From Dehalococcoidia bacterium (GTDB taxonomy: Bacteria > Chloroflexota > Dehalococcoidia > E44-bin15 > DAOWNJ01): a stretch of 41,651 nt of DNA. The stretch covers positions 1 to 41,651 of the forward strand of contig DAOTXZ010000100.1 of the NCBI GenBank assembly GCA_034435115.1, written 5' to 3'. Positions within the stretch are counted from its first letter, which is position 1. Each line of letters opens with the position of its first letter. The notes below the pieces were generated by a model that worked only from the letters and a program-made list of their open reading frames with translations, was not told the DNA's origin and made no database searches. The position numbers and the translations under genes are program-made. Positions 20,270 to 38,731 of the stretch are shown piece after piece.

Positions 20270-22276
20270 CTAAACAGGCACTTCCAGAACTATAGTAGTT
20301 CCTTTGCCCAGCTCAGAATGCAGTGTCAATTCGCCGCCCAGAAGGCGTGCCCGCTCCTGCATTCCGGCAAGGCCCAGCTTGCCGCTACGGGCCAGGTCTC
20401 CCAGCCTCTCCGGCAGCTCAAATCCCTTGCCATCATCGCTAATGGTAAGGCGGATACCGCTTTTGCCAAATTCGACGCTAACCTCAGCCCTTGAAGCTTG
20501 GGCATGCCTCCTGATATTGCTCAGCGCCTCTTGGACAATGCGGAAAAGGGGCGTTTCTACCTCTGGGGGGAAGCGCCTCTCGGTACCAACCACCTTGAGC
20601 TTTGCCTTTATGCCATGCTCCCTTTCCAGCTCGCCAATAAGCCACCCCACCGCTGGCAGCAAGCCGAGGTCATCCAATATCGAGGGGCGCAGGTCTTGGA
20701 CAAAGCGCCGCAGTCCCTGTACGGCTTCCCCAATTTGTTGGCGAAGGCCCTTTAAAAGGGCTATATCCTCCTCAGCGAGGTGGGCGCTATTGCGAAGGAT
20801 GTTGTCCAGCTGGCGTGAAGCGGCATAAAGAACTTGGGTGGTATCATCATGAAGCTCGCGGGCTATGCGTTTCCTCTCCGCCTCTTGGGCTTGGGTGGTC
20901 TGCTGAACATAGAAGCGCAGGTTCTCCTGCATCCTCTTTTCCTCGGTGACATCCCGGGCAATATGCTGGAAGCCTGTCGGCTGTCCATCGGTGGTCACTA
21001 GGCTAGTGGCAAGCATGAGGATGGCCACTGTGCCATCTCTCTTGATGAGGCGTTGCTCATAGGGTTGTTCCAGCGGTTCCCCACAGAGCAAGCTACGACG
21101 CACCATTCTGGCAACATTGAGCCCTTCCTTGTCGAGGAAGGAGGTCACGTTCATTCTGGTCAGCTCCTCCACGGTGTATCCGGTAAGCTTTTCCGATGCC
21201 TTGTTTGCCGATATGATATTACCTTCCATGTCGTGAACCCAGATGGCGTCATTGGCACCCTCAAACAGTGCTCGATAGTTTCTTTCCGAAACGCGCAGTT
21301 GCTCGGCGATGAGGCGCTCCTTTTGATACAGGCGGGCATTCTCCATGGAGATGCCTATCTGGTTGCCAATGGCACTGAGCATTTCCACCTCCTCGGGAAG
21401 GAATTCCCGGGGGCGGCGCACGGCAACGGATAGGGTGCCCACGACCATGCCTTTGGATTTCAGAGGCACAATGAGCTGGGCTTGGAGTTTCATCTCCTTT
21501 ACCGCCGTTCTGGTGAGCCTGGGATCATGAGAGGCATCCTTCACTATCAGGGGTTCTCCGCGCTCAGCCACCATCCCATTAAAGCCCTCTCCAAGCTTCA
21601 TCCTATTAACCTCCTGGGCAAATTCTTCAGAAACGCCCTCGTATGCCACCAGCTCCAGCTCCTTCTTCCTCTCATCCAAGGAAAATATCAGGACAACCTC
21701 CACCTCCATCACCTCCATGACCATCTCGATGGCTCGGTGCAGAACCTCGTGTAGCTCCAGGGACTGGGTGAGCACGGTGGAAATAGCATTGATGGTGGCG
21801 AGGCGCTTTTCATTGCTCCTGGAGAGGCGAATGTGAGCTTGAAGCTGTTGGTGAGCCTCCTCCAGTTTCTCCAGGGCTTTTCGGTGCTCTTCCTTCTCTC
21901 GCTCTAGAGACCTAAGCCAAAGACAGGCCAAAACGCCAATGAGAAGGACACATCCCACCTCGAAGAGGGCATCTGCGGGAGCAGGGGAGATAAAAACCGC
22001 CCTGGGCAACATAACAACTAGGGACACAGCAGATGTGATCACCCCCGCTCTGAGCCCGAAGACAAATCCACTGTAGACTATAGGGATCAAGAAAAGGATG
22101 CGGTCAAAAGCATGGCGAGTGAGCCCAAAGTGGAGGCTGGGGGCAGTTGTGCCCGGGATTCCCAGCTGCTCGGCATAATGGAGGATAGTGAATATCACCA
22201 TCGAGGCCAGGATCAGCCAGAAATGGCCGCTACCAAGGAGGGCGGTTAGTTGGTTGGTCCATTTCGGTGGGAACAT
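20270..22276 (-). CDS. membrane sensor histidine kinase (TM-GAF-PAS-HisKA_3-HATPase)
   Basis: About 4 N-terminal TM segments, a coiled coil, GAF and PAS-like regions, ARELHDDTTQ H-box, GKGTTIVLEVP G-box. Confidence 0.85.
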   Translation of the reverse strand: MFPPKWTNQLTALLGSGHFWLILASMVIFTILHYAEQLGIPGTTAPSLHFGLTRHAFDRILFLIPIVYSGFVFGLRAGVITSAVSLVVMLPRAVFISPAPADALFEVGCVLLIGVLACLWLRSLEREKEEHRKALEKLEEAHQQLQAHIRLSRSNEKRLATINAISTVLTQSLELHEVLHRAIEMVMEVMEVEVVLIFSLDERKKELELVAYEGVSEEFAQEVNRMKLGEGFNGMVAERGEPLIVKDASHDPRLTRTAVKEMKLQAQLIVPLKSKGMVVGTLSVAVRRPREFLPEEVEMLSAIGNQIGISMENARLYQKERLIAEQLRVSERNYRALFEGANDAIWVHDMEGNIISANKASEKLTGYTVEELTRMNVTSFLDKEGLNVARMVRRSLLCGEPLEQPYEQRLIKRDGTVAILMLATSLVTTDGQPTGFQHIARDVTEEKRMQENLRFYVQQTTQAQEAERKRIARELHDDTTQVLYAASRQLDNILRNSAHLAEEDIALLKGLRQQIGEAVQGLRRFVQDLRPSILDDLGLLPAVGWLIGELEREHGIKAKLKVVGTERRFPPEVETPLFRIVQEALSNIRRHAQASRAEVSVEFGKSGIRLTISDDGKGFELPERLGDLARSGKLGLAGMQERARLLGGELTLHSELGKGTTIVLEVPV

Positions 22277-22301: not shown

Positions 22302-22997
22302 TCAGCCGATGTCATCCAGGGAGAACCACCCCCACTTCAGAGCATATATTATCGCCTCGGAGCGCGAGCCAACCCCGAGCTTATTGAAGATGCTTCTAAG
22401 GTGTGCCTGAACGGTGCGCACGCTGATAAATAGCTCGCCGGCGATATCCTTATTCCCCATGCCCTTGGCCGCCAGCTTGAGCACCTCCATCTCCCGTTCG
22501 CTTAGAAGCTCTCTGGGGTGGCCCGCCGCTGGCTTTGCTTCGCGAGGTCTCAGGTGAGCCATTATCTTTCGAACAACCACCGGGTGAAGCACTGGCTCCC
22601 CGGCGTAGACAGCACGGATGGCATCGATGAGCTCATCGCCGCTCACGCTCTTAAGCAGGTAGCCAGCGGCACCGGCCTCCATCAGGGCAAAGATGTACTC
22701 ATCGTAATCATATGCGGTGAGGATGAGCACTGCCACTGATGGCAGAAGGGATTTGATCTGTTTGGTGGCCTCAATACCATTGAGCTTGGGCATGGCGATA
22801 TCCATGATGATCACATCGGGTTTGAGTTCAATGGCAAGAGCTACTGCCTCCTCGCCACATCCGGCACCGCCCACCACCTCCATATCCGGCTCCCGCTCCA
22901 AGAGCTGACGGGTGCCCTCCCGCACCACCACATGATCATCAGCAAGCAGAATCCTGATCCTGTCCACAAGGCCTTCCCCACTGTTATTATAGTTCAT
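22302..22997 (-). CDS. NarL/LuxR-family response regulator
   Basis: ILLADDHVVVREG, IIMDIAMPKLNG, LSEREMEVLKLAAKGMGNKDIAGELFISVRTVQAHL. Lies 25 nt upstream of the kinase. Confidence 0.9.
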   Translation of the reverse strand: MNYNNSGEGLVDRIRILLADDHVVVREGTRQLLEREPDMEVVGGAGCGEEAVALAIELKPDVIIMDIAMPKLNGIEATKQIKSLLPSVAVLILTAYDYDEYIFALMEAGAAGYLLKSVSGDELIDAIRAVYAGEPVLHPVVVRKIMAHLRPREAKPAAGHPRELLSEREMEVLKLAAKGMGNKDIAGELFISVRTVQAHLRSIFNKLGVGSRSEAIIYALKWGWFSLDDIG

Positions 22998-23172: not shown

Positions 23173-23517
23173 ATGAAGGCAGTAACGGTTCAAAGAGAGG
23201 AGATTACCCAAGAAGAGACGATGGGCTTTTGGGCAGGCAAGACGCCCTGCTGGAAGATGTGCCACTGTCCTCAGATGATAAGGGAGGAGTGCCCGGCGAC
23301 CAAATACCCCTTCCACCCCTGCTGGGAGATAGAGGGCACATACTGCAAGCTGGACGATTATGGAGCCACTGGCAGGGACACCAGCATATGCCAGGTGTGC
23401 CGGGTGTACAAGCGGTGGGGTGGCAAACAGCCCATAAGGCTCAAGCTCTTCGGTAGGGGCATTGATACCTCCCTTAAGTCGCTGACGAGAATGGCCGAAG
23501 GGGAAAGGGTCAAATAG
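23173..23517 (+). CDS. small Cys-rich protein with two CW dipeptides ('two-CW'-like domain)
   Basis: 114 aa, AGGGAGGAAG RBS. TPCWKMCHCP..CPATKYPFHPCWEIEGTYC..CQVCRVYK gives 8 Cys in about 50 aa. Assignment to the 'two-CW' domain is from memory only. Confidence 0.6.
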   Translation: MKAVTVQREEITQEETMGFWAGKTPCWKMCHCPQMIREECPATKYPFHPCWEIEGTYCKLDDYGATGRDTSICQVCRVYKRWGGKQPIRLKLFGRGIDTSLKSLTRMAEGERVK

Positions 23518-23615: not shown

Positions 23616-23645
23616 TTGACTCCCTTGTTTAGAATGCTGTAGAAT
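23616..23645 (+). promoter_or_regulatory. putative promoter of the hydrogenase operon
   Basis: TTGACT, 18-nt spacer, TAGAAT. A second TAGAAT copy lies 10 nt upstream of the -10 box. About 60 nt upstream of the NuoE-like start. Confidence 0.45.
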
Positions 23646-23704: not shown

Positions 23705-24229
23705 ATGGATGGAATCGACGCTGAGATAATAGCGGAGGCGGTGGCGAAGCGGGAGGTTGGGGGCGGAATCGCGGGCAGGATCTTCAGGCAGGTACAGAGG
23801 CTGGTGGCCGACACCAGGGGGGAGCCGGGAGCGCTGATTCGCGTCCTCGAGCAGACTCAGGGGATGCTTGGCTATCTCCCCCACCCAGTGTTGAAAACCA
23901 TCTCCAGAGACTTGAGGATCCCCCTCAGCGAAATATACGGCGTAGCCAGCTTCTATCACTTCTTCACCTTGGTTCCCCGGGGCAAGTACGTGATCCAGGT
24001 CTGCATGGGCACATGCTGCTATGTGAAGGGAGGGGAGAATATCCTGAACGCTCTGAGGAAGGAGTTCGCCATCGAACCCGGTGAAACTACCACTGACGGC
24101 AGGTTCTCCTTGGAAACCGTTCGCTGCTTGGGCTGCTGTGGCCTGTCACCCGTTGTCGCCATTGGGGATCAGGTCTACCGCCAAATGACGCCGGGCAAGA
24201 TGATGGACCTTTTGAGTTCCTTCGAGTAG
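23705..24229 (+). CDS. hoxE: NuoE/HoxE-like [2Fe-2S] subunit of the NAD(P)-linked hydrogenase diaphorase
   Basis: CMGTCCYVKGG and CLGCCGLSP thioredoxin-like [2Fe-2S] motifs, 174 aa. Confidence 0.85.
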   Translation: MDGIDAEIIAEAVAKREVGGGIAGRIFRQVQRLVADTRGEPGALIRVLEQTQGMLGYLPHPVLKTISRDLRIPLSEIYGVASFYHFFTLVPRGKYVIQVCMGTCCYVKGGENILNALRKEFAIEPGETTTDGRFSLETVRCLGCCGLSPVVAIGDQVYRQMTPGKMMDLLSSFE

Positions 24230-24239
24230 GAGGTCATGG

Positions 24240-27200
24240 GTGAGGGTGATCACTAATATTGAAGCCCTAAGAGAATGGAGGCAAGAGGCCCAGAGGAAAC
24301 TAGCCGAACGGGAGAAGAATGTCCAAGTAAAGGTACATATGGGCACCTGTGGCATCTCCTCGGGGGCAAACGCCGTTCTCGATGCCTTCCGCCACAACCT
24401 AGAGAGAGGTAAGCTAATTCACGTCACCCTTTCCAAGGCAGGCTGCATTGGACTATGCAGCCATGAGCCTACCGTTACTGTCATTCATCCTAAAGGTGGA
24501 AAAGCCCTTTACCTTGATGTGACCGTAGAGATGGTCCTCCAGATAGTTGAACAGCATATAGTGGCGGGGAAGGTGATCGAGGAATGGGCGGCAAAGGAGG
24601 ATAGCCCTTTCTTTAAGTTGCAGGAGAAAAGGGTTCTCTCAAATCAAGACCTGGATGCCGGGGATATCGAGGAATATATCGCTCGCGATGGTTACCAAGC
24701 CTTGGCCAAAGTTCTTACCAAGATGAAGCCGGAAGAGGTTATCGAGGAGGTAACCAGATCGGGGCTGCGGGGTCGAGGCGGGGCTGGCTTCCCCACCGGA
24801 ACGAAGTGGGGCTTCGTCCGCGCCGCAACAGGGGAGGAAAAGTTTGTGGTTTGTAATGGAGACGAGGGCGACCCCGGCGCTTACATGGACCGCACCGTTC
24901 TAGAAGGTAACCCCCATGCGGTGATCGAAGGGATGACTATTGGGGCCTATGCCATTGGGAATGTTCGCCAGGGTTATGCCTATGTGCGCGCCGAATATCC
25001 TCTCGCCATTGAAACCCTGAGCAATGCCATTCGTCAGGCGCGAGAGCATGGTCTCTTAGGGGAGAACATCCTAGGCACCGGGTTTAGCTTCTCCATCGAT
25101 ATCTTTCCCGGGGCTGGTGCCTTCGTCTGTGGAGAGGAAACAGCCCTCCTCATCTCCATTGAGGGAAAGCGGGGCAATCCCCGCCAGAGGCCTCCCTTTC
25201 CTGCCCAGAAGGGGCTTTTCGATAAGCCCACCACCCTCAACAATGTGGAGACCTGGGCCAATGTCCCCTCCATTATCCTCAAGGGGGCCGATTGGTTTGC
25301 TGGTGTGGGAACAGGACGAAGTAAAGGGGCAAAGACCTTCTGCTTGGTGGGCAAGATAAATAACACCGCCCTCATCGAGGTTCCCCTGGGGATACCGCTG
25401 GGGCAGATAGTATTCGATATCGGCGGTGGCATCCCCAACGGGAAGAGGTTCAAGGCGGTGCAAATAGGGGGGCCCTCCGGAGGCTGTATCCCCATAGAGC
25501 ATCTCAACACCCCGGTCGATTATGAGGCGGTTACTGCATTGGGAGCGATCATGGGCTCTGGTGGCTTGATCGTGATGGACGAGGATAACTGTATGGTGGA
25601 TATGGCCAAGTTCTTCCTCCAGTTCACCAAGGACGAATCCTGCGGCAAGTGCGTTCCTTGCCGCGCTGGCATCCCCAAGATGCTGGATATCCTGACCAAG
25701 ATCACCAACGGCGAAGCCACCATGGAAGACCTCGATGTCCTCGGGCAATTGGCACAGATGGTGGGCTCGGCGTCTTTGTGCGGCCTGGGGCAAACGGCCC
25801 CCAACCCTGTCTTGAGCACGCTGCGCCACTTCCGCGATGAATACGAGGCCCACATCATCGACAAGAGGTGCCCTGCCGCCATCTGCCAGGCCCTGTTTCG
25901 GGCACCCTGTCAGCATACTTGCCCGGTGGGGCTGGATATTCCAGGTTATGTTGCCTTCATCAAAGAGGGGAAATTTGAGGAGGCCTATCGCCTGATCAGA
26001 CAAAGGCTTCCCTTCCCCTCCGTCTGTGGCCGGGTATGCCATCATCCCTGTGAGGGCAAGTGCCGTCGCGGCCAGTTGGATGAGCCCATAGCCATCAGGC
26101 ATCTCAAGAGGTTCGCCGCTGACTGGGCCTTCGAGCACGGAATCGAATATATACCACCAGTAAAGCAGAGGAGGGAAGAGAGGGTTGCCGTAATTGGCGC
26201 CGGCCCCGCCGGGCTGTCCGCAGCCCACGACCTCGCCCTGGACGGATACCGGGTTACCGTTTTTGAAGCTCTTCCTGTGGCTGGGGGTATGCTGGCAGTG
26301 GGCATTCCCGAGTATCGCCTGCCGAAGAGGATACTGAAAAAGGAGATCGAGGCCATCGAAAAACTGGGGGTCGAGATAAAGCTAAATACCCGGGTTGAAG
26401 ATATAGAATCGCTGCTCAGTGATGGATATGGGGCGGTTTATGTCGCTGTTGGTGCTCACCGCGGCGATAAGATGAACCTCTCTGGCGAGGAGCTGGAAGG
26501 GGTTTACGATGCGGTGGAGTTTCTGCGGGAGGTTAATCTGGGGGAGAAGGTGAAGGTGGGCAGGCGGGTTGCGGTCATCGGCGGCGGCAATACCGCAATC
26601 GATTCGGCCCGGGTGGCGCTGAGAATGGGTGCCCACGAGGTACATATATTCTACCGGCGGGAGAAGCAGGATATGCCGGCGATAAAGGAGGAGGTGGAGG
26701 CGGCGGAGGAGGAGGAGGGAATCCACCTCCACCTGCTCACTGCCCCCACCAGAGTGTTGAGCCATAATGGCAGGGTTTCGGGGCTGGAGCTTATTCGCAT
26801 GGCACTGGGGGAATTCGACAGCAGCGGCAGGAAAAGGCCTAACCCTATAGCAGGGTCGGAGTATACTTTCGATTGTGATATGGTCATCGGGGCCATAGGC
26901 CAAAGGCCAGATACCTCCTTCCTCAGCGGCAACGGGATCAAGATAGGGAGGGGTGGAAATATAGTGGTCGACCCCCGCACCCTTGCTACCGACCGCCTCG
27001 GGATTTTCGCCGGCGGCGATGCGGTAACCGGACCCCGGACTGTTATTGAGGCCATCGCCGCCGGGCAAAGGGCTGCCTGCTCCATCAAGAGGTATCTTGA
27101 GGGGAAGAAGCTTGAGCTGAGAATGGAGCGGGAGGACAGGGAGACCTTCGTGCTCCCCCCTGCCGAGGAGGCAGAGACCAAGGAGAAGGCTAGGGTTGCT

Positions 27201-27329
27201 ATCAGCAAGCTTCCCAGTGCGGAGAGGAGCCGCTCTTTTGAAGAGGTGGTTCGGGGTTATAGTGAGGAGAAGGCGATGGAGGAGGCAGCAAGGTGCCTCA
27301 GGTGTGATGCGGAAATCAGAGGAAAGTAA
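24240..27329 (+). CDS. hoxF: NuoF/HoxF-like FMN/NADH subunit fused to a GltD/NfnB-like FAD/NAD(P)H oxidoreductase
   Basis: 1029 aa. GRGGAGFPTGTKW, CNGDEGDPGAY, ESCGKCVPCR, SLCGLGQTAPNP. Then CPVGLDIPGYV, VCGRVCHHPCEGKCRRG, VAVIGAGPAGLSAAHDL, VAVIGGGNTAIDSAR. GTG start after a TAGGAGG RBS. Confidence 0.85.
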   Translation: MRVITNIEALREWRQEAQRKLAEREKNVQVKVHMGTCGISSGANAVLDAFRHNLERGKLIHVTLSKAGCIGLCSHEPTVTVIHPKGGKALYLDVTVEMVLQIVEQHIVAGKVIEEWAAKEDSPFFKLQEKRVLSNQDLDAGDIEEYIARDGYQALAKVLTKMKPEEVIEEVTRSGLRGRGGAGFPTGTKWGFVRAATGEEKFVVCNGDEGDPGAYMDRTVLEGNPHAVIEGMTIGAYAIGNVRQGYAYVRAEYPLAIETLSNAIRQAREHGLLGENILGTGFSFSIDIFPGAGAFVCGEETALLISIEGKRGNPRQRPPFPAQKGLFDKPTTLNNVETWANVPSIILKGADWFAGVGTGRSKGAKTFCLVGKINNTALIEVPLGIPLGQIVFDIGGGIPNGKRFKAVQIGGPSGGCIPIEHLNTPVDYEAVTALGAIMGSGGLIVMDEDNCMVDMAKFFLQFTKDESCGKCVPCRAGIPKMLDILTKITNGEATMEDLDVLGQLAQMVGSASLCGLGQTAPNPVLSTLRHFRDEYEAHIIDKRCPAAICQALFRAPCQHTCPVGLDIPGYVAFIKEGKFEEAYRLIRQRLPFPSVCGRVCHHPCEGKCRRGQLDEPIAIRHLKRFAADWAFEHGIEYIPPVKQRREERVAVIGAGPAGLSAAHDLALDGYRVTVFEALPVAGGMLAVGIPEYRLPKRILKKEIEAIEKLGVEIKLNTRVEDIESLLSDGYGAVYVAVGAHRGDKMNLSGEELEGVYDAVEFLREVNLGEKVKVGRRVAVIGGGNTAIDSARVALRMGAHEVHIFYRREKQDMPAIKEEVEAAEEEEGIHLHLLTAPTRVLSHNGRVSGLELIRMALGEFDSSGRKRPNPIAGSEYTFDCDMVIGAIGQRPDTSFLSGNGIKIGRGGNIVVDPRTLATDRLGIFAGGDAVTGPRTVIEAIAAGQRAACSIKRYLEGKKLELRMEREDRETFVLPPAEEAETKEKARVAISKLPSAERSRSFEEVVRGYSEEKAMEEAARCLRCDAEIRGK

Positions 27330-29309
27330 ATGAAGGAGATCAAGCTCACCATCAATGGCAGGGAGGTAAGGGGCAAGGAGGGCAATACCGTCCTCGATGT
27401 TTGCCGCGCCAACGACATCTATGTGCCCACCCTGTGCTATATTGAGGGATTGTCCAGTGTAGGCGCCTGCCGTCTCTGTATGGTGGAGATCGAGGGGGAG
27501 AGGAGGATAAATCCCGCCTGCACCTACCCTGCCAGGGATGGGCTGGTGGTCAAAACCACCAGTGAACAGCTGGAAGGGTATCGGCGCATGATCCTGGAGC
27601 TCATCTTCACTGAGCGGAACCACTTTTGCATGTTCTGTGCCCAGAGCGGCGACTGCGAGCTGCAGGATTTGGCCTATCGCTACCAGATGGATCATGTGCG
27701 TTACCCGTATGCATTTCCCTCCTTACCTGTGGATACATTAAACGATTATGTGGTCCTGGATCACAATCGCTGTATGCTTTGTGGCAGGTGTGTTCGGATA
27801 TGCAGCGAGGTAGTGGGCATCCATACCCTGGATTTCGCCCGGCGAGGTTTCAGAACCATGGTATGTGCCGATCTGGATCAACCTTTAGGTGAATCCTCCT
27901 GTATCTCCTGCGGCGCCTGCGTGCAGGCATGTCCCACAGGCGCTATTTTCAGCAAGGTGAGCGCCTATAAAGGAAGAACCAGCGAATGTCAAGAGATAGA
28001 GAGTGTCTGCTCCCAATGCGGCGTCGGCTGCGAAATAAGGGTTCTGGTAAGGGACAACAATCTGGTCAGGATCGATGGAGCAGAGCTCACCGGGCTCAGG
28101 GGCCAGCTCTGCCGAAAGGGCCGTTTCGACCCTCTCAGTGAAACTCGCCACAGGGTCACGACACCTTTGAAAAGGGATGGCAAAGGGCAACTGAAGGAAT
28201 GCTCCCTAGATGAGGCCCTGGAATTGATCGCAGACAAGATGGGGGAGATAAGCAGGAGCTACGGGCCCGGCGCCATTGCCGGCATTGCCTCGGCCAAGGG
28301 TTCCAACGATTCCCTGGAGCGATTCAATAGGCTTTTCCGCGAGGTGATCGGCACCGATAAGGTGGATACTATGGATGGGGATAGCTACCGGGCCATCGCC
28401 AGGGCCATAGAAAGCTTCAACGGGAAAGGCCTGGAAATTGAATGCCCCATGGAGAAGATACTGGAGGCGGACTGCATCATGGTGGTTGGCGCTGACCCTC
28501 TGGAAAGCCACCCAGTCTTGGGATGCTACATTTTGAGGGCTGTAGCCCGGCGGGGGGCAAGGCTGGTCGTTATCGACCCGCTGCGAAATTCCTTTGCCTA
28601 TCGTGCCCACCTCTGGCTGAAGCCTGAGGAAGGAACGGAAGACAGCCTGATCAAGGGGCTAGCTCACCTTATCATGGAGAAGGGCCTGGGCGACTGGAAA
28701 AGGGCGAAGCGGGGTTTTGTCAAGGCCATCAAGGATTATAGTGCCGATAGGGTGAGCAAAGGGACTGGGGTAAAGGCGGAGGACCTCGAGCGGGCAGCGG
28801 AAATTTATGGCAGGGCAAAGCATGGCATCATCGTCTATGGGGAGGGGATTGTCAGTAAGGGGGATGCCGAGCCGATCGCTTCCCTTTTGAACCTGGCTGC
28901 CATGACGGGGAACTTCACAAAGGACAAGCTCAGGGTTATCTCCCTCAAGCCCAATGGCAACAGCAGAGGTGCCTGGGAGCTAGGGGTTGCCTCAAAGAAC
29001 GGCTTTGAACTGGGCGATGTGAAGGCGGTATACCTGTTTCTTGCTGACGATGCAATTCAGGATGAGAACCTAGTGGCTCAGCTTAAGGAGGTGGAATTCC
29101 TAGCGGTGCAAAGCAGCTATCATTCTCCCGTCACCTCCATGGCTGATGTTGTCCTTCCCTCGCCTATCTGGGCAGAGAGGGAGGGCAGATATGTTGCACT
29201 GGATGGTAGCCTTCGGCATTCGAGGCGAGTCTTGGAGTCAGGGCAGGGGATAAAGGATGACTGGCAGCTAATGGAAGAGCTTATGAAACGCTTGAAGGGA
29301 GGGAAGTGA
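27330..29309 (+). CDS. hoxU: NuoG/HoxU-like Fe-S subunit with a degenerate molybdopterin-oxidoreductase (formate dehydrogenase-like) domain
   Basis: CRLCMVEIEG [2Fe-2S], HNRCMLCGRCVRIC, CISCGACVQACPTGA, CSQCGVGCEIRV..LCRKGRF (MopB-type 4Fe-4S). 659 aa. Confidence 0.8.
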   Translation: MKEIKLTINGREVRGKEGNTVLDVCRANDIYVPTLCYIEGLSSVGACRLCMVEIEGERRINPACTYPARDGLVVKTTSEQLEGYRRMILELIFTERNHFCMFCAQSGDCELQDLAYRYQMDHVRYPYAFPSLPVDTLNDYVVLDHNRCMLCGRCVRICSEVVGIHTLDFARRGFRTMVCADLDQPLGESSCISCGACVQACPTGAIFSKVSAYKGRTSECQEIESVCSQCGVGCEIRVLVRDNNLVRIDGAELTGLRGQLCRKGRFDPLSETRHRVTTPLKRDGKGQLKECSLDEALELIADKMGEISRSYGPGAIAGIASAKGSNDSLERFNRLFREVIGTDKVDTMDGDSYRAIARAIESFNGKGLEIECPMEKILEADCIMVVGADPLESHPVLGCYILRAVARRGARLVVIDPLRNSFAYRAHLWLKPEEGTEDSLIKGLAHLIMEKGLGDWKRAKRGFVKAIKDYSADRVSKGTGVKAEDLERAAEIYGRAKHGIIVYGEGIVSKGDAEPIASLLNLAAMTGNFTKDKLRVISLKPNGNSRGAWELGVASKNGFELGDVKAVYLFLADDAIQDENLVAQLKEVEFLAVQSSYHSPVTSMADVVLPSPIWAEREGRYVALDGSLRHSRRVLESGQGIKDDWQLMEELMKRLKGGK

Positions 29310-29311
29310 TC

Positions 29312-29848
29312 GTGGCCAAGACTAGGGTTGCCACCGTTTGGTTGGATGCCTGTGCCGGGTGCCATATGTCTTTCTTAGACATAGATGAGGCCATAATTGA
29401 GCTGGCCAACCTTGTGGAATTCGCCCGAAGCCCGATAACGGACATAAAGGAGTTCTCCCCTGTAGATGTGGGCATCGTAGAGGGGGCGGTGGGCAATGAG
29501 GAGGAGGAAGAGGTGGTAAAGGAACTGCGCCATAACTGCAAGATATTAATGGCCTGGGGCGATTGTGCCTGCTTTGGTGGGATAGCCTCCATGCGCAATT
29601 TCTTTGATAAAGAGGAGATCCTGCGCCGCTGTTACGTGGAAAGCGAGAGCACGGGCAAGGGCAAAGTTCCGTGGTCAAAAGACATTCCGCCCCTTCTGGA
29701 CAAGGTGAAGCCGGTAAATCAGGTGGTTAAGGTCGATTGCTATGTTCCGGGATGCCCTCCCAGAGCCAAGGCTATCGACTATGCCTTGAAGGAGCTCCTC
29801 GCTGGCAGGATCCCGGTCTTGCCTCGAGATTTGATGAGATTCGATTAG
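29312..29848 (+). CDS. hoxY: [NiFe] hydrogenase small subunit, group 3 (HoxY-like)
   Basis: VATVWLDACAGCHMSFLD, GDCACFGG, YVPGCPP. GTG 29312 is better spaced from the GGGAGGG RBS than GTG 29306. Confidence 0.85.
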   Translation: MAKTRVATVWLDACAGCHMSFLDIDEAIIELANLVEFARSPITDIKEFSPVDVGIVEGAVGNEEEEEVVKELRHNCKILMAWGDCACFGGIASMRNFFDKEEILRRCYVESESTGKGKVPWSKDIPPLLDKVKPVNQVVKVDCYVPGCPPRAKAIDYALKELLAGRIPVLPRDLMRFD

Positions 29849-29863: not shown

Positions 29864-31297
29864 ATGGCATCCCGCACTATCGTCATCAACCCGGTCACTC
29901 GAGTTGAAGGCCATGGAAAGGTAACGATTCACCTCGATGGTGATGGCAGAGTATCGGCGGCCAGATTCCACATAACCGCCTTCAGGGGCTTTGAGAAGTT
30001 CTGTGAGGGGAGGGTTTTCTGGGAAATGCCAGTAATCACCTCCAGGATCTGCGGCGTCTGCCCGGTGAGCCATCACCTCGCCTCAGCAAAGGCCTGCGAC
30101 GCCATCTTAGGGGTGGAGATCCCGCCAGCAGCCAAGAAGCTGCGCCTGCTCATGCACATGGGGCAATTCATCCAGTCCCATTCCCTCCACTTCTTCCATC
30201 TGGCAAGTCCGGATCTCCTTTTGGGAATGGACGCTGACCCGGCGAAGCGAAATATCATCGGATTAATCAAGCAAAAACCTGAGATTGCCAAGGTGGGTAT
30301 TGGCCTGCGTAGCTTTGGCCAGAGGATCATCGAGACGCTGGGAAGCGGCAAAAGGGTTCACCCCATGGGTGCCATCCCCGGTGGAATGAATCAAACCCTC
30401 TCTCCCCAAGCTCGCGACCAATTCCTCAACGGGGTAGATGGGGTTATCGCCAATAGCCAGCTCGGCATCGAAATAATCAAAGACTACTATTCAAAAGGGG
30501 GGGAGGAGATAGCTCGCTTCGCCAACTTTCCCTCAGGGTATCTCAGCCTGGTGGATGAAAACGGGAACCTGGAGCTTTATGATGGCAAACTGACATTTAA
30601 GGACAGCAAGGCAATCACCCTCGAAGAGAGGTTTGAACCCAAGGATTACCTCTCTATCATTGAGGAAAGGGTGGAGGATTGGTCTTACCTCAAATTCCCG
30701 TTCTATAAGAAGATGGGCTATCCGGCAGGTATCTATAGGGTAGGGCCTCTGGCGAGGCTAAATGTCGCCTCTGGGATAACAACCCCCTTAGCCAACAAGG
30801 AGCTCCAGGATTTCAAGGGTTTAGCTCCCAACAGTATGGTGCAGGGCTCCCTTTACTACCACTACGCCCGGTTGATCGAGCTCCTTCACGCCGGAGAGAA
30901 GGTGAGATCCCTGCTTGAGGATGATGAAGTCTGCTCTCAGGAGATAAGGGTTAATTCCACTAAGATCAATGAGGAGGGGATAGGGGTGATCGAGGCTCCG
31001 CGGGGAACCCTTTTCCACCATTACTGGGTGGATGGTAGCGGCAAGATCCGGAAACTGAACTTGATCGTAGCTACCGGTAACAACAATGCAGCAATGAACC
31101 GGGCAGTCTTCGAAGTGGCAAGGCAATACGTTAAGGGCGAGAAAATCAGCGAAGGCATGCTCAATAGGGTTGAGGCCGCCATTCGCTGCTATGACCCCTG
31201 CATCTCCTGCTCTGCTCACGCCCTGGGCCAGATGCCGCTGCTGGTTCAGCTTGTTTCTGCCGATGGCGAGGTTATCGACGAAGTCGGCAGAGGCTAG
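29864..31297 (+). CDS. hoxH: [NiFe] hydrogenase large subunit (HoxH-like)
   Basis: [11 protein letters not shown]-terminal Ni-Fe ligands and [10 protein letters not shown]-terminal ligands, followed by a 25-aa extension. 477 aa. Confidence 0.9.
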
Positions 31298-31428: not shown

Positions 31429-31464
31429 AAAAAGGAGCTCCCCAAGCCATCACCTGGGGAGCTC
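31429..31464 (-). terminator. intrinsic terminator for the minus-strand ORF block, between convergent genes
   Basis: GAGCTCCCCA / TGGGGAGCTC 10-bp stem with a 10-nt loop. On the minus strand it is followed by CTTTTTAT. Lies 36 nt after the stop at 31500. Confidence 0.5.
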
Positions 31465-31499
31465 TCGCAATAAGAATCTAGCTTGCTCTCTTGGAGAGC

Positions 31500-31829
31500 T
31501 TAGAAGTCAAACAGCGCTGGCTGCGCTGCCTTGATTCTGGCTGCCACCTCCGCCTTTTTCTGCCTTCCCTCTCTTGCCCTGGTGCGCTGGTGATATATCC
31601 ACTCCTTGAGACGGTTGAGATCTGCCATTTGCTCCTCATTGAGAGATTCTACTTTGATATCCTCCGGGATCTCCCCACCCCTGTTAGCACGGGCATAGGT
31701 CTCGCCGGCAACATGGAGGTAAATCTTAGTCCAGTCCTCACTCATAGGGGCAGTGAGGGAGGCCGTATAGAGATAGGCAGTCGCCTCAGCATCGATCCCG
31801 GTGGGTTGCTCCCTGTGAGTCTCCTTCAT
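31500..31829 (-). CDS. hypothetical phage-like protein (possibly the 3' part of a frameshifted 31500..31971 gene)
   Basis: 109-aa ORF. An RBS-preceded ATG at 31971 opens a 35-codon ORF that runs into this frame across a C6-T-C5 tract (31888-31899). Confidence 0.5.
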   Translation of the reverse strand: MKETHREQPTGIDAEATAYLYTASLTAPMSEDWTKIYLHVAGETYARANRGGEIPEDIKVESLNEEQMADLNRLKEWIYHQRTRAREGRQKKAEVAARIKAAQPALFDF

Positions 31830-31992
31830 ATTCTCGGTTAGCCTCTCCAGGGTTATCTGGGTTTTAATCCAGTCGAGGAGCGTGTCTCCCCCCTCCCCCG
31901 GGGTAGACTATTATCGGGTCGGTGAAAGTTCCCACCAGGTTGCCAATCATACTATCCGTTATTTTGGCCATAGTTACCTTATCACCTCCTCT

Positions 31993-32166
31993 CTACCTCT
32001 CTTCTTCGAGTTTCCTCTTGATGTAGTGGAGTAGCTTGCCCATCTCCGCCCGATACTCCTTGAGGTCGTCGAGATGTGGCTTTTCAACCATGTAGCTAAG
32101 AGCCTCACAGATAAGCCACCAGCTTCGGTAAGCAAGCGATATGCGAATACCCCGCTTTTCTGGCAT
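31993..32166 (-). CDS. hypothetical small protein (57 aa)
   Basis: ATG preceded by GAGAGGAGGTTAGG. MPEKRGIRISLAYRSWW..KRKLEEER. Below the 60-aa track cutoff and found by hand translation. Confidence 0.4.
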   Translation of the reverse strand: MPEKRGIRISLAYRSWWLICEALSYMVEKPHLDDLKEYRAEMGKLLHYIKRKLEEER

Positions 32167-32220
32167 TGTCCTAACCTCCTCTCTAGCCGTAGTTATCCCA
32201 TCGAACTAACCTCAATTGGG

Positions 32221-32694
32221 TTACTTCTTAAACTGAACAATGTCCAGGCTGACATAGCCCCTTGGCCGGTAGGGGTCAATGGGATGCTCACCAAAGCCGT
32301 TCGAGAAGTCCACCAGCCACAGGGTATAGCCCTCATACTCCTGCTCTCGGAGATTAACCAGTTGGTCGGTAAACATCCTCACGCTTGCCCCCTGTTTCCC
32401 AGAGGACTATGACGGATGGCAGATTGTTACCACCTCGGAACCTCTCCACCTTGAGTCTTCCTAGCTTCAGGTTGCGAAGCCGGAAGTGGTTATGCGCTCC
32501 GCCATAGGTGCCGATGTAAACAATCTTCCCCCTCAAGCTGGTCAAGGACTTCCATCAACCTTTGTAGGGCTTCCCTCCGCCTCTTGCGGAGAGGGACTTG
32601 GGCAATCCTGGTTCCTGCCTGAACTCTGGTTCTCGGCTCTGGCTGTTTTTACCTCTACATTAGCCTCTTCAAACAGGCTGGGCTGGGTTGTCAT
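32221..32694 (-). pseudogene. phage-like gene broken by three +1 frameshifts
   Basis: ATG 32694 follows GAAAGGAGGTGAG (MTTQPSLFEE..). The open frames succeed one another a-b-c-a and overlap at A5/G5/G5 runs. Joined, they give about 157 aa ending ..SLDIVQFKK. Confidence 0.45.
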
Positions 32695-33397: not shown

Positions 33398-33757
33398 CTA
33401 GGCGGCTGCTACTGGCTCTCTTGCCTCATCGGGGGATAGCTCTATCCCCTCATCCTCATCGGCTTGGGCTTCGGGCTCGACTACCGCCTCGGCTTGGGCT
33501 GCCCCCTCTTTTGGCCTGACATCCTCGACCATCATCGGCATAACCACAAAGCGATAACCGTCAACCGTGAACATGACTGGGCTACTTTGGGAGCTTACCT
33601 TTAGCTCCACCATCCCCCCGCAAGCTTTCAGGGCTTGGACAAGATAGCGAGCACTAACCGCCGTCTTGACCTCCCCGCTTGTGTCTGCCTCGACCTCCGC
33701 CTTGCCCCTATCCTCTTTTGCCTCAAGGATAACCTTGCCATCGCTTATGGTAAGCAT
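33398..33757 (-). CDS. DNA polymerase III beta-clamp C-terminal fragment with an acidic tail (likely truncated phage dnaN)
   Basis: DGKVILEAKEDRGKAEVEADTSGEVKTAVSARYLVQALKACGGMVELKVSSQSSPVMFTVDGYRFVVMPMMV aligns with the last ~75 aa of E. coli beta (..FNVSYVLDVLNALK..YVVMPMRL). The ATG overlaps the upstream stop (TAATG). Confidence 0.6.
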   Translation of the reverse strand: MLTISDGKVILEAKEDRGKAEVEADTSGEVKTAVSARYLVQALKACGGMVELKVSSQSSPVMFTVDGYRFVVMPMMVEDVRPKEGAAQAEAVVEPEAQADEDEGIELSPDEAREPVAAA

Positions 33758-36700
33758 TATCGGCCGGTATTCCTTTTTGGGAGGTCATCATGCCAGATAG
33801 CGACAAGGCTTCTGATTGCCTTTGACGCCTCTTTAGTGTCAAAGGTATGGCTCATGCTGTCGTCATAGCTTGCTGCCAGCTCTTTTTCCTCTCTCCAGCT
33901 ACTGCTCTCAATCAGCGTTCGCATTGAGGTGGCATATTCACTCCCAGAGGGACCGAATATCCTGGCTTTAGCTAATTCTCCAAACCTGCCTTTAGCTTCC
34001 AGGTAGTGCTTGCGGATATAGTTATGCTCCGGTGGCTCCTCTGCACTAGCCGCCATTTCTATCGCTCTATTGATCAGGTCGATGTGAGTTCCAAAGAGGT
34101 CGCGGAAGATACCACAGATGGTGACAACTACATCTATCCTTGGCCTGCCTAGCATTTCCAGCGGTATGAGTTCCAAATCCTTAAACCAGGGGCTGGCTCT
34201 CGTTATAAGTCTGACACCCAAATAGGCAAGTATCTGGGCTATGGTATCCCCACCCGTCTTTACTGTCTCAAACCCCCAGAGCACCAGCCCCACGCTTTCC
34301 GGGTAGCAACCATGTTTTTCGTGGAATTTCCTAAGAATGCTGGAGACAGCCTCTTCACCCACCCGCAGGGCGGTACGGGTAGGAATCAGCCTAGGGTCGA
34401 ACTCGTACATGTTGCGGCCAAGGGGGAAAATCCCCGGCGTGCGGATAGAGTCCCCACCCAGGTTCGGGAGCACATATCCCCCCGAAAGGGCCTTAAGCAA
34501 AGCCCCGCTCTCATCCGACTGATAAATTTGTTCTCTAAGCTGAAGAATATAGCGACTAATCTCCTCCGGGATGGCAACTCTTTTGCCTTCAAGTAGCTGT
34601 GCTAATAGGTGCCTTACCTCTTCTTCTATCTCCTCGGCAAGCTTCGGATCTTTGGTCAACGCCGCTCGACTCACTCCACGGCGTTCGGCCAGAAGCTCAT
34701 AGAGAGAAGGGATTTCACGCCCTAATCTGAGCACTGAGGTTAGGTATGATATCAGTGACTCGCCCTCCAACCGTCGGTCTATTATGTGCAGACCTCCAGG
34801 TATGAGTCGCCGCTTCATACGATAGAGTAACAGCTTCAGCGCCTCAACATCAGCGGCATCAAGGTTCAACTCACTAGCCTTCTCCCTGATAAGCTCCAGG
34901 AGTCTCCCCTTGTCCTTATCCTCCGCCTTGTCATGTTCAGCAAGTAGGTCTTCCAGCTCCAGATAAGCGCCATAGAGGTCCGAGGGTACCATGGGAGGTG
35001 AAGCGTGGGAAATAGTGACGGCGTAACTCCGGCGTTTAGCAATGGTTGATTCCGAGGTGTTGCCTACCCAGTAGTAGTAGATATGGGGGATGTTGCCAAT
35101 CAGTATATCAGGGTAGCAGTTCTGGGAAAGGGCTATCTCCTTACCTTTGTTGAATTCAAGGGTTCCGTGCATCCCCCAGTGAATCAGGGCATCAGCCTTA
35201 AATTCCTTTTCCAGCCATTTATAGAAGCAGATATACTGATGATGGGGTGGAAGGTCTTTATCATGGTATGCCTTTTGCGGGTCCTCGTGCACACCCCGTG
35301 CAGGCTGAAGCCCAACAAAGACATTTCCGAGAATTATCCCCGGAATGAGCAATTTGCCATCCTCAACCATCACCTCACCAGGAGGTGGTCCCCAATGCTC
35401 TTCTAACTCCTCTTGTACTTCCGCAGGAAGCGCTGAATACCACTCAACGTATTTCTCCGCGCTCACCATTATCTCAGGGGATGAACTTTTGAACCTAGGG
35501 GAATTAACTACCCCTCGGGAAATCAAGGTGTCTGAAAGCCTCCCAGCTGGTAGCTCCACCCTGTATCCGCTTGCCGCCAGCTTCTTCAGAAATATCTCCA
35601 AGCTTGCCAGACTGTCGAGGTACCCTGCTGTCCCGATGTTAGCTTCGCCAGGTGGGTAGTCATATAAAATCAGGGCGATTTTCTTGTCCTCACTACGCTT
35701 TTTCCTGAGGCTGATCCAGCGTAGCGCTCGCTCCGCTAGTTTAGCTACCCGCTCCGGGATAGCCTGGCATTCCTTCACCTCAGCCAAGATGGATTCATCT
35801 CTGCCCAGCGAAACCAAACCGGCAACCACCAGTGGCTCAATGCAGCCATCAAGCTCAGGCAGCACCACGCCAAGCACCACCTCCAGCGGGTTCACTCTCG
35901 TCGACCTTCTCCATTCTTCGATCTCCGTTGTGTAGAGGTGAAAACCTGTAAGCACAGGAACGTTTAACCTTTGCAGTAGGTCATAGGTTGGCTCCGGTGT
36001 CCCACCATACGGTCCGCCATGCAGCCTGAAATACTGCATATTGACCACGAGGTCAATAACCGGAGTGCCGCTTGAGAGAAAATATTTGGAGATAGCCTCC
36101 AGATTGTATTCCACCCGGGAGAACACGGGTATAATATTAGTTCGGTCCCCAACTGCGGTGATGAATTCCCTCACCATGGGGGTACAGTCTTCGAAATGCA
36201 TCTGGCCGTAAAAGAATATGCCGATAGTTGGCCTTGAATTATCCCATTTGATTTCCCTCTGAAATTGGCTAAGCTCGCTATAGAAACCTTTTTCTGGCCA
36301 CCAGATGCCGAAGTCAAGCGTCTTTTGAGGTGGTGGCACATGTCTTACCTTGATTCCACCGTACTCTCTGAGCAAAAATAGGAGGAGCCCTTTGATATTC
36401 TCCTTTCCATAGTTAGAGTAGTACTCCTGGGCGATAATCCAGTTGCGCATATCCTTAAGTTTTCCCAAAGGGAAGACGGAGCCTATCTTTTTGGTGAGCT
36501 CGGAGAACTTCCGGGCTTTGATAAAACTCTCAACGTCCATCTGACGGTCACCCTTGAAGATATCGCTCCCTTTGAACGATCCCATGCGGGTGAGGGCGAA
36601 AATCTGAGAGCTGCCGCCAATTAGCACTACGATGGTAGCTTTAGTCTGGGGAAGGAGTTTTTGGAGAAAATCGGATATTCCACTCTGGCCGCGGATATCC

Positions 36701-36888
36701 ACCAGAATGATCTGAGAGGTTTGGAGCTCCCTCTCTACTTCGTCTAGGGAAATCTGCCCCTTCTCAAGGTCATGAAGGTAAATCTTTCTGAGCGAAAGGA
36801 TATTGCCGTGTTCTATTTTGAGTTCACTAACGGCCTCTCGTAGCTCACGCGTATTATCCATAGTGCTGAAGAGAAGGAATCTCACCAT
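33757..36888 (-). CDS. cobN: CobN / Mg-chelatase H-family large chelatase subunit, C-terminally truncated
   Basis: 1043 aa. [36 protein letters not shown]. Family similarity stops near ..ASYDDSMSH. The tail [27 protein letters not shown] looks foreign. The start overlaps the upstream stop. Confidence 0.8.
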
Positions 36889-38714: not shown

Positions 38715-38731
38715 ATTGTCCCCCAAGCGGC

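Follow-up and report, generated by a model that had tools for sequence, protein, structure and literature searches.

In the characterised bifurcating enzymes of the Bfu type, electrons of a third substrate travel through an A subunit to the flavin mononucleotide (FMN) and clusters B1 and C1, with nicotinamide adenine dinucleotide (NAD(H)) reacting at the FMN, and a gated low-potential arm is made up of the mobile C-terminal domain of BfuC, a hinge and clusters B3/B4 of BfuB (PMC8880783, PMC10482914, PMC12018979). In the structures, ferredoxin reduction sits at the C-terminal domain of HydB, StnB or NfnB (PMC8880783, PMC10482914, PMC12018979), and within the accessible text of the Bfu papers every characterised Bfu bifurcating enzyme has ferredoxin as its low-potential partner. 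NiFe-HydABCSL of Acetomicrobium mobile is an electron-bifurcating NiFe-Bfu enzyme (PDB 7T2R/7T30; Feng et al. 2022, PMC8880783), for which the authors placed ferredoxin reduction on a route through B3/B4 (PMC8880783). Here we analyse a related five-gene [NiFe] hydrogenase operon in a Dehalococcoidia bacterium (GenBank assembly GCA_034435115.1, contig DAOTXZ010000100.1, positions 1 to 41,651 of the forward strand; this whole stretch of 41,651 nucleotides (nt) is called the window). Its HydB/BfuB subunit, encoded by one open reading frame (ORF) at 24240..27329 on the plus strand, continues into a GltD-like module that, judging by alignment, replaces the ferredoxin-like domain.

The window operon resembles A. 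mobile NiFe-HydABCSL in its five subunits, a HydA with a molybdopterin-like domain, the B2/Zn ligands and the Ni-Fe motifs. However, A. mobile HydB (597 amino acids, aa) ends in a ferredoxin-like domain with 2x[4Fe-4S] (B3/B4), whereas the window protein ends in a 475-aa module for flavin adenine dinucleotide (FAD), NAD(H) phosphate (NADP(H)) and 2x[4Fe-4S]. The StnABC/NfnABC enzymes (8OH5, 9BOV, 9N5U) share with the window the BfuB/BfuC core (637-675 bits) and a permuted GltD/NfnL-like module with NADPH motifs. In these enzymes, however, the module lies in the A subunit after an N-terminal [2Fe-2S] domain and feeds the mid-potential A-chain, the ferredoxin domain of BfuB is kept and there is no hydrogenase, whereas the window has the module on BfuB, where the ferredoxin domain would be, and an A-chain that runs to a [NiFe] site.

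More distant likenesses exist. NfnAB/NfnSL (4YLF, 5JCA) have a homologous FAD/NADPH/2x[4Fe-4S] module, but in canonical NfnB the RCLxC element is N-terminal and an NfnA/S partner that carries [2Fe-2S] and FAD is required; the window ORFs scanned, to which every negative on partner genes below refers, include none. HoxEFUYH (group 3d, 5XF9) is likewise a soluble [NiFe] hydrogenase with NuoE/F/G-like diaphorase parts, and Hox is without clusters B2 to B5 (PMC8880783). In [FeFe] group A2 ('glutamate synthase-linked'), for which the HydDB rule reads 'GltD ... but not NuoF' (PMC5037454), a hydrogenase is also genetically linked to a GltD-like protein; there, GltD stands alone or is linked to HydA and there is no NuoF core, whereas in the window GltD sits on the NuoF-like subunit of a [NiFe] enzyme.

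The only explicit published description of the fusion that we found, in a search from which subscription-only papers were absent, is that of Greening et al. 2024 (PMC11216029), who report an archaeal hybrid hydrogenase whose HydB has a 'glutamate synthase (GltA) domain'. In the accessible portion of that paper, the archaeal hybrids resemble the window in having a NuoF-like HydB fused to a glutamate-synthase-type domain and an operon that includes a group 3 [NiFe] enzyme, and differ in a HyhS-HydA fusion and a short conduit subunit. That portion holds no mention that we could find of a replaced ferredoxin domain or of NADPH motifs.

The fused subunit and its C-terminal module

The fused HydB/BfuB-GltD subunit (1029 aa), recognised through Pfam, NCBIfam, homologs and alignments, has a GTG start, zero internal stops and, 6 nt before the start, the ribosome-binding site GGAGG; the hoxE-like gene ahead of it stops 10 nt short of the start. 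A first-pass annotation made from the sequence alone had described one uninterrupted ORF with a thioredoxin-like, a NuoF and a GltD/NfnB-like part, and the ORF and the three-part map were upheld by homologs of the same length and by Pfam and NCBIfam scans. Every motif that it quoted is found in the translation at the place it gave: GTCGISSG (aa 35-42) and GCIGLCSHEP (68-77) in the thioredoxin-like region; GRGGAGFPTGTKW (178-190), CNGDEGDPGAY (205-215), ESCGKCVPCR (466-475) and SLCGLGQTAPNP (512-523) in the NuoF part; and CPVGLDIPGYV (561-571), VCGRVCHHPCEGKCRRG (595-611), GAGPAGL (653-659) and GGGNTAID (781-788) in the GltD part. Pfam reports a weak 2Fe-2S_thioredx match at aa 26-105, Complex1_51K at 171-343 (E 2.5e-44), NADH_4Fe-4S at 454-538 (7.9e-35), Fer4_20 at 546-634 (3.9e-29) and Pyr_redox_2 at 648-942 (6.7e-37). 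A further weak match, to SLBB at aa 367-415 (19.6 bits, E 8e-4, cutoff 27), falls in a region that aligns without gaps to 7t2r_B. Among NCBIfam models, nuoF_fam covers aa 141-539 (486 bits) and gltA/GltD-type models cover aa 549-955, and only PRK12771 ('NAD(P)-binding protein'; aa 507-1022, 519 bits against a cutoff of 516) passes its curated cutoff. The C-terminal half is thus matched by GltD-type models, Fer4_20 and Pyr_redox_2, and has the FAD and NAD(P)H motifs.

The gene fusion is genuine and widespread. The homolog matches listed include 119 other clusters at 68-86% identity, all with this architecture and, apart from two truncated ones (960 and 975 aa), of 1027-1054 aa at 98-100% query coverage; where named, they are Dehalococcoidia/Chloroflexi metagenome-assembled genomes (MAGs). 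When a 141-aa query spanning the junction was compared with 1.84 billion representative proteins, 82 matches reached E <= 1e-30, and both sides of the junction were covered in most of the best 150 matches. Across phyla the junction is conserved residue by residue. Moreover, in a survey of one genome per GTDB species, ORF and blastp analysis of the 80 best loci found the fusion as a single ORF in at least 49, a lower bound (46 of full length, ~1010-1150 aa, and 3 that run off a contig end); the two separate genes that the annotation had thought relatives might reveal occur, as adjacent ORFs, in the alphaproteobacterium L058 and Atribacterota L056. Since independently assembled homologs share the full-length architecture and the conserved junction, the chance that a frameshift from sequencing or assembly has joined separate hydB and gltD-like genes is negligible; the listed clusters, the GTDB loci, the junction alignment and the 1.84-billion-protein search each refute it. 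An AlphaFold2 model of the 1029-aa fusion, run with a 28-sequence alignment, was poor (mean predicted local distance difference test score, pLDDT, 56; predicted template modelling score, pTM, 0.36), with values below 50 at the junction (aa 532-564).

The central NuoF/HydB core (aa 140-554; 24657..25901, plus strand) belongs to an alignment of 719 bits to 7t2r_B over aa 30-554. We scored nucleotide motifs and cofactor ligands across 53 fused proteins of many phyla. The Gly and Arg positions of the FMN/NAD(H) loop GRGGAGF (aa 178-184) are kept in all 53, as is each of the B1 [4Fe-4S] ligands C468, C471, C474 and C514. The Bfu-specific B2/Zn hinge was located by carrying the A. mobile HydB residue numbers of PMC9304861 through the alignment to 7t2r_B: C451, T489, H538, C544 and C549 correspond to A. 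mobile C438, C476, H525, C531 and C536. Four of these ligands, C451, H538, C544 and C549, are present in 53/53 fused proteins. Position 489 is variable (T35 C9 S8 A1), Thr being the majority state in the family, and in other solved Bfu enzymes a hinge with Thr at this second position binds Zn (PMC12018979). The B2-site His is found in virtually all BfuB proteins and not in non-bifurcating homologs (PMC9304861).

It is directly after this hinge that fused and unfused proteins part. In the junction alignment of GTDB proteins the two are collinear as far as the second hinge Cys. After the last hinge Cys, unfused BfuB proteins continue with two CxxCxxCxxxCP motifs in a ferredoxin-like domain of ~55 aa holding B3/B4, and the window protein, like all other fused proteins, continues with the PC(Q/E)xxCP of a GltD Fe-S domain. 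Consistent with this, the alignment of the fusion to 7t2r_B ends at residue 541 of the 597 in that chain, the remainder being GltD-like, and Pfam gives Fer4_20 and no Fer4-type match, so that no ferredoxin-type 4Fe-4S domain (clusters B3/B4) was found in the fusion. Because the fused chains switch to the GltD Fe-S domain right after the hinge, the ferredoxin-like domain has been replaced rather than added to. Only 7 residues separate the Zn ligand C549 from the cluster ligand C557, and therefore the GltD clusters must adjoin the hinge, at the position of B3/B4. The NuoF-GltD fusion of the first-pass annotation is thus real, but it is not a simple appending: by alignment, the GltD module replaces the 2x[4Fe-4S] C-terminal domain of HydB directly after the Zn/B2 hinge. 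When the BfuB core of 84 sequences (412 columns) was placed in a neighbour-joining tree, fused and unfused proteins were interleaved, the unfused L063, for example, being sister to the window clade; this tree does not decide between one fusion event and several.

The module itself (aa 555-1029, 475 aa; 25902..27326, plus strand), delimited by PDB alignments and motif conservation, is a GltD/NfnL-like NADP(H):FAD module. Its best PDB match is NfnA of C. saccharolyticus (9BOV_A aa 101-567, 433 bits), followed by NfnA of T. sibiricus (9N5U_A, 400 bits) and StnC of S. ovata (8OH5_C aa 100-566, 393 bits), whilst canonical NfnB/NfnL score lower (4YLF_B 377 bits, 5JCA_L 329 bits). In canonical NfnB/GltD an element of the form '...FEEV.LGY..EEA..EA.RCL.C' precedes the 'PC...CP' motif. 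In StnC, NfnA and the window protein the RCLxC element instead stands at the C-terminal end of the module, in the window as ...SFEEVVRGYSEEKAMEEAARCLRCD with C1019 and C1022. The homology to GltD/NfnB that the annotation had drawn is therefore borne out, but not the canonical type: by its order of elements the module is of the circularly permuted StnC/NfnA (Nfn-Bfu) subtype.

Its cofactor sites are well kept. The cluster I ligands C557, C561, C1019 and C1022 occur in 52-53/53 fused proteins (C1019 and C1022 in 52/53), and the cluster II ligands C600, C604 and C608 in 53/53; the fourth cluster II ligand is either C596, a candidate present in 41/53, or E605. All Gly positions of the FAD motif GxGxxG (GAGPAG, 653-658) are found in 53/53. 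In the second-Rossmann motif GGGxxA (GGGNTA, 781-786), Gly781 and Gly783 are kept in 53/53 and Gly782 and Ala786 in 52/53. In GltD/NfnB-type enzymes a Tyr-Arg-Arg motif binds the NADPH 2'-phosphate; here Y805-R806-R807 is kept in 52/53, and the motif is also visible in the aligned NfnB, NfnL, StnC and NfnA sequences. The annotation's two nucleotide sites in one protein are thus both intact and conserved. Given these cofactor and nucleotide motifs, the C-terminal module looks like a functional NADP(H):FAD oxidoreductase rather than a degenerate Fe-S spacer; that it was kept merely as an Fe-S wire is unlikely, because a wire would not need NADPH and FAD motifs.

Membership of two known families was considered and rejected. 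The glutamate synthase small subunit (GltD) equivalog models score below cutoff (gltA TIGR01316 403.6 bits against 471.75; gltD_gamma_fam 303.8 against 482.95), and there is no Glu_synthase gene among the window ORFs scanned. For canonical NfnAB, the same ORFs include no NfnA/NfnS partner (PyrK-like, with FAD and [2Fe-2S]). Proteins such as P0229, P0232, P0261 and P0264 (~650 aa) consist of the NuoF four-helix-bundle end, the Zn hinge and the GltD module with no FMN domain; in the junction search their hinge/GltD stretch falls at about aa 90-240. PRK12771 appears to model this FMN-less ~650-aa arrangement, matching the window protein over aa 507-1022.

At the other end of the chain, a thioredoxin-like 'B5' domain (aa 1-120; 24240..24599, plus strand), the region of the weak 2Fe-2S_thioredx match, aligns with the N-domains of 7t2r_B, 9n5u_B and 9bov_B. 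Of its putative metal ligands H33, C37, C69 and C73, the last two are invariant in the Dehalococcoidia clade and the first two at least 90% conserved. The HxGTC variant is also present in the unfused BfuB of L064. An extra ORF occurs in L011, L014, L015, L019, L023, L025, L038, L052, L053 and many unfused loci, and in the window the domain is inside the main ORF; since at least some of the main ORFs (e.g. those of L019 and L011) still align to the region, the extra one may be a further copy and not a split-off part.

The operon and the partners of the fusion

The fusion is gene 2 of five tightly packed genes, all on the plus strand. Upstream lies HydC/BfuC (23705..24229), a NuoE/HoxE-like thioredoxin-like [2Fe-2S] subunit of 174 aa (Pfam 2Fe-2S_thioredx, E 8.6e-48), whose best PDB match is the NiFe hydrogenase subunit C, 7t2r_C (149 bits), with the C1-cluster Cys motifs aligned. 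Downstream follows the NuoG-like conduit subunit HydA/BfuA (27330..29309; 659 aa; Pfam Fer2_4, NADH-G_4Fe-4S_3, Fer4, Molybdop_Fe4S4 and Molybdopterin), with a [2Fe-2S] cluster, a His-ligated [4Fe-4S], 2x[4Fe-4S] and a further [4Fe-4S] inside a molybdopterin-oxidoreductase-like domain. It matches 7t2r_A over its full length (473 bits) with the cluster Cys and His residues aligned; it has no H-cluster, and its [2Fe-2S] domain runs directly into the NuoG-type clusters with no inserted GltD module. The last two genes encode the [NiFe] hydrogenase small subunit HydS (29306..29848; 180 aa; Pfam Oxidored_q6; best PDB match 7t2r_E, 215 bits) and the large subunit HydL (29864..31297; 477 aa; Pfam NiFeSe_Hases), which has the Ni-Fe ligand motifs RICGVC and DPCISC and scores 595 bits with 7t2r_D, ahead of Hox 5xf9_D (456) and Mvh 5odc_F (407).

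For all five subunits the best solved-structure match is a 7T2R chain, which covers HydA, HydC, HydS and HydL nearly end to end and HydB only to aa 554. The first-pass annotation had called this a Hox-type enzyme, and that assignment fails on these matches to A. mobile NiFe-HydABCSL, whilst its remark that the architecture is not the textbook HoxEFUYH one was right. The HoxE model NF005747 reaches 163.7 bits where its cutoff is 224, and the HoxU model NF005745 reaches 283.4 where 333 is required, covering only aa 3-226 of 659; the 'HoxU' of a classical HoxEFUYH assignment would have 659 aa, not ~240. We therefore rejected that assignment. The annotation had also proposed looking for the fusion together with [NiFe] subunits in related genomes, and the same five-gene unit is present in the Dehalococcoidia relatives L001-L003 and L085-L087, as a closed unit in those examined; Pfam HoxH matches the large subunit of relatives. 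Beside the fused operon, L085 (2211-6939) and L086 (2514-7238) have a divergent Mvh/Hdr-type cluster that encodes a flavoprotein like HdrA and another [NiFe] large subunit. In L085 an MvhD/FlpD gene and a small subunit were called in addition, neither being called in L086, where both [NiFe] large-subunit genes are split into two ORFs.

Beyond Dehalococcoidia, and with host taxonomy taken from the names of homologs, the fusion is found in Chloroflexota, Desulfobacterota, Bacillota, Bacteroidota, Acidobacteriota, Planctomycetota, Verrucomicrobiota, Omnitrophota, Armatimonadota, Actinomycetota and Spirochaetota, and two archaea (L044, L049) carry it, one a Loki-type Asgard. Its partners vary, as the following example loci show. 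An [FeFe] HydA-like protein of ~520-660 aa with H-cluster motifs accompanies it in L005, L006, L020, L023, L024, L028-L030, L033, L036, L045, L047 and L053, and a formate-dehydrogenase-like A subunit of ~880-1020 aa in L008, L009, L010, L017, L018, L022, L032, L035 and L059. [NiFe] HydS/HydL are the partners in the window, L001-L003, L038, L046, L048, L052 and L058. In L007, L040, L044 and L051 a short HoxU-like A subunit is followed by a Glu_synthase-domain protein of ~530 aa (PF01645; L007 4802-6424, L040 11882-13465, L044 11846-13426, L051 11844-13448). These are four distant genomes, the Loki-type Asgard included, and in L044 a glutamate dehydrogenase gene comes next; from their gene content such loci may encode a Bfu-linked glutamate-synthase-like enzyme.

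Several loci carry additional sets. In L005, L023, L042 and L056 a second, unfused HydBC and [FeFe] HydA set adjoins the fused one, and the unfused HydB of L005 is without hinge and C-terminal domain, like non-bifurcating HydB. The Balneolales MAG locus L034 (3802-10936) encodes a 494-aa protein with a [NiFe] small-subunit-like N-domain and a C-part with one H-cluster-like motif: the third motif, CLAGCTNGGG, is kept, and TSCCP and MPCxxK were not found in this protein. The locus further encodes HydC, the HydB-GltD fusion, a divergent large subunit of the [NiFe] type and a short conduit protein, and it resembles the archaeal 'hybrid hydrogenase' clusters in the accessible portion of Greening et al. 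2024.

Around the window operon, a sigma-70-like promoter candidate (TTGACT-18-TAGAAT, 10/12; 23616..23645, plus strand) lies ~60 nt upstream of hydC, a consensus match alone in a region where the number of promoter-like sites is close to shuffle expectation. A 13-bp GC-rich hairpin (31435..31464), ~140 nt after the hydL stop, is a possible operon terminator by consensus match only; its T-run appears in the minus-strand listing and none is listed on the plus strand. Upstream of the operon, a Cys-rich ORF of 114 aa (23173..23517, plus strand) is two-CW-like, the NCBIfam two_CW_domain match (21.7 bits, E 1.9e-4) being below cutoff. It has a good ribosome-binding site, the motifs PCWKMCHCP, HPCWEIEGTYC and CQVCRVY and no Pfam match; it is possibly operon-associated and could be a metal or redox sensor tied to the adjacent two-component system. 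That system, identified by Pfam and divergent from the operon on the minus strand, comprises a GAF-PAS-HisKA_3 histidine kinase (20270-22276) and a LuxR-type response regulator (22302-22997). A pair of the same kind adjoins the fused gene in L004 (4287-7362) and L087 (15175-17879), on different sides, with a GAF/PAS sensor and a Response_reg-GerE regulator, histidine-kinase domains not being among the Pfam entries listed for L004. This recurrence suggests a conserved, dedicated operon regulator. The small ORFs downstream of the operon (31491-31841 and 32074-32412) gave no convincing Pfam or NCBIfam match, and neither hyp maturation genes nor a hydrogenase maturation protease are among the window ORFs scanned. 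Elsewhere in the window are a tungsten-type aldehyde:ferredoxin oxidoreductase (6417-8288, plus strand), a LonB/LonC-like protease (14521-16980, plus strand) and a CobN-like chelatase with an AAA/VWA partner (33757-38738, minus strand).

Proposed electron route and alternatives

By its domain content the window enzyme is of the NiFe-HydABCSL/Bfu type, failing one defining feature, the ferredoxin-type domain, and it probably links H2 to both NADH and NADPH. The reading that we favour, and for which belief and doubt are in our view evenly balanced, is that of a five-subunit cytoplasmic Bfu hydrogenase in which NADP(H) would replace ferredoxin and in which bifurcation or confurcation between H2, NAD(H) and NADP(H) would be gated. 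H2 would be split at the Ni-Fe site of HydL, and electrons would pass through HydS and the HydA cluster chain to an FMN/B1/C1 'flavobicluster' in HydB and HydC, where NAD(H) would react at the FMN. Beyond the Zn hinge the gated arm would then reach FAD and NADP(H) by way of the two GltD-type clusters, instead of ferredoxin by way of B3/B4. The overall reaction, 2 H2 + NAD+ + NADP+ <-> NADH + NADPH + 2 H+, would be independent of ferredoxin and could run in either direction, and gating would stop a short circuit from NADPH to NAD+, preserving the NADPH/NADH disequilibrium. The idea of gating fits the retention of the hinge ligands by all 53 fused proteins and the intact C1-cluster motifs in HydC of the window. 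From sequence we infer NADP(H) as the partner on the gated arm, the energetic coupling of the nucleotide half-reactions and the direction in vivo.

We calculated the energetics from E'(NADH) of about -280 mV and E'(NADPH) of about -370 to -380 mV (PMC10482914, PMC9304861), taking E0'(H2) as -414 mV and a slope of 29.6 mV for each tenfold change in H2 pressure. The coupled reaction comes to equilibrium near 100-150 Pa H2; by the same calculation NADH alone evolves H2 only up to ~3 Pa, and NADP+ is directly reducible only above ~3-7 kPa. Below ~100 Pa H2 a fermenter could dispose of NADH and NADPH as H2 without ferredoxin, and above ~100 Pa H2 would fill both the NADH and the NADPH pool.

Several points weigh against this proposal of a gated NADP(H) arm. 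At ~-370 mV, NADP(H) is a much weaker 'low-potential' partner than ferredoxin, and therefore no coupling would be needed at high H2. Typical sediment H2 is a few Pa, so that only the H2-evolving direction would run there. The cluster geometry of the fusion is, moreover, read from the spacing of residues. In NfnSL the homologous FAD is itself a bifurcating flavin; the clusters there deliver to ferredoxin (PMC10482914), so that the GltD clusters of the fusion may likewise bear a ferredoxin site. For their archaeal HydB, Greening et al. 2024 (PMC11216029) guessed that the 'GltA domain' has 'likely ferredoxin' as its acceptor. Lastly, L004 (8474-12386 of CP070810.1, a 1.03-Mb Dehalococcoidia chromosome) has HydC and an intact fusion of 1031-1034 aa, whilst HydA is reduced to a 48-aa [2Fe-2S] remnant and there are no hydrogenase subunits. 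The core of HydC and fusion may therefore work, or linger, without H2; the locus is either a stand-alone NADH/NADPH module (e.g. for transhydrogenation) or a decaying operon in a streamlined genome.

Two of these points lead to an enzyme with four substrates, in which the docking site of ferredoxin would be the GltD-type [4Fe-4S] cluster exposed to solvent, by analogy with NfnSL, or some other place, and a hydrogenase combined with an Nfn-like transhydrogenase would equilibrate H2, ferredoxin, NAD(H) and NADP(H). The module is homologous to NfnB/NfnL (4ylf_B 377 bits, 5jca_L 329 bits), whose clusters feed ferredoxin (PMC10482914), a ferredoxin at the GltA domain is what Greening et al. 2024 assume in the accessible text, and the fourth ligand of cluster II varies, C596 being present in 41/53. 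We nevertheless consider this unlikely, if the foremost of the alternatives: according to Kumar et al. (PMC10482914) the permuted StnC/NfnA subtype has lost bifurcation and serves NADPH entry only, and the window ORFs scanned include no NfnA/NfnS-like partner gene. Less probable still is an uncoupled hydrogenase with two cofactors, in which an Fe-S wire would serve two independent nucleotide sites and the protein would double as a soluble transhydrogenase. Both nucleotide sites are intact, StnABC has an uncoupled NADPH:NAD+ side activity (PMC10482914), and L004 keeps just what a plain transhydrogenase would need, HydC and the fusion. However, all 53 fused proteins retain the bifurcation-linked hinge ligands C451, H538, C544 and C549, the C1-cluster motifs align in HydC of the window, and an ungated wire between NADH and NADPH would dissipate the cellular NADPH/NADH disequilibrium. 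The Glu_synthase-domain genes that follow a short BfuA in L007, L040, L044 and L051 raise the thought that the module donates electrons, in the manner of glutamate synthase, to a GltB-like or other partner, so that the hydrogenase would feed amination or reduction and not the NADP pool. For the window this is highly improbable: neither the operon nor the window ORFs scanned include a Glu_synthase-domain gene, the Dehalococcoidia relatives examined have the operon as a closed unit of five genes, and the NADPH-binding motifs are conserved.

Extending the gated NADP(H) arm to the whole set of fused proteins, we propose tentatively, and on balance with more reserve than confidence, that BfuC and BfuB-GltD form the core of an unrecognised ferredoxin-independent Bfu branch. 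NADP(H) at the FAD would replace ferredoxin on the gated low-potential arm, and a mid-potential reaction would be coupled at once to the pools of NAD(H) and of NADP(H), whether that reaction is one of formate, of H2 at a [NiFe] or an [FeFe] site, or is glutamate-synthase-like; the window enzyme would be an NADH- and NADPH-confurcating or -bifurcating hydrogenase.

Place in published surveys and meaning

In the accessible text of the Bfu census of Schut et al. 2022 (PMC9304861), BfuB is defined by four InterPro domains, IPR017896 among them: the Nuo51 FMN-binding domain IPR011538, SLBB IPR019554, the NuoF [4Fe-4S] domain IPR019575 and the ferredoxin-type domain IPR017896 (PMC9304861). The window has the Nuo51 FMN domain, the NuoF [4Fe-4S] domain and the B2/Zn ligands, together with a BfuC thioredoxin-like [2Fe-2S] domain (IPR002023) and a BfuA with [2Fe-2S] and 4Fe-4S domains. 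The ferredoxin-type domain is absent because, as the alignments indicate, it was exchanged for an NADPH module of the Stn/Nfn-Bfu type. Fused proteins were probably filtered out of the census because they have no Fer4-type Pfam match, and we found no mention of the fusion in the accessible text. More generally, public annotation of the homologs is generic ('FAD-dependent oxidoreductase', 'hydrogenase', 'NADH-quinone oxidoreductase subunit F'), so that surveys of hydrogenases or bifurcating enzymes that filter on domain content can miss them. The HydDB rule already special-cases proteins with both GltD and NuoF, and its words 'but not NuoF' imply that its authors met proteins with both domains. 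Names for such a fusion (NuoF-GltD type) gave no match in the literature outside subscription-only papers. A Hydrogenedentota paper and the Csac NfnABC paper have nothing on the fusion, the accessible part of the Nfn review by Liang 2019 nothing relevant on NuoF, hydrogenase, Chloroflexi or HydB, and what Sewell 2017 reports from deep-sea Chloroflexi is an FdhAB whose beta subunit is NuoF-like, not a NuoF-GltD fusion.

Taken together, a clean domain swap, motifs conserved over many phyla and at least four kinds of partner suggest a second, overlooked wiring of the bifurcating core. If the proposed route is true, it would be a natural variant of the 'flavobicluster' with a two-electron hydride carrier as low-potential acceptor, and the calculated H2 ceiling for re-oxidation of NADH would rise ~30- to 50-fold without ferredoxin. 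H2, or formate, would then be tied directly to the NADH/NADPH balance of anaerobes, for example of sediment Dehalococcoidia.

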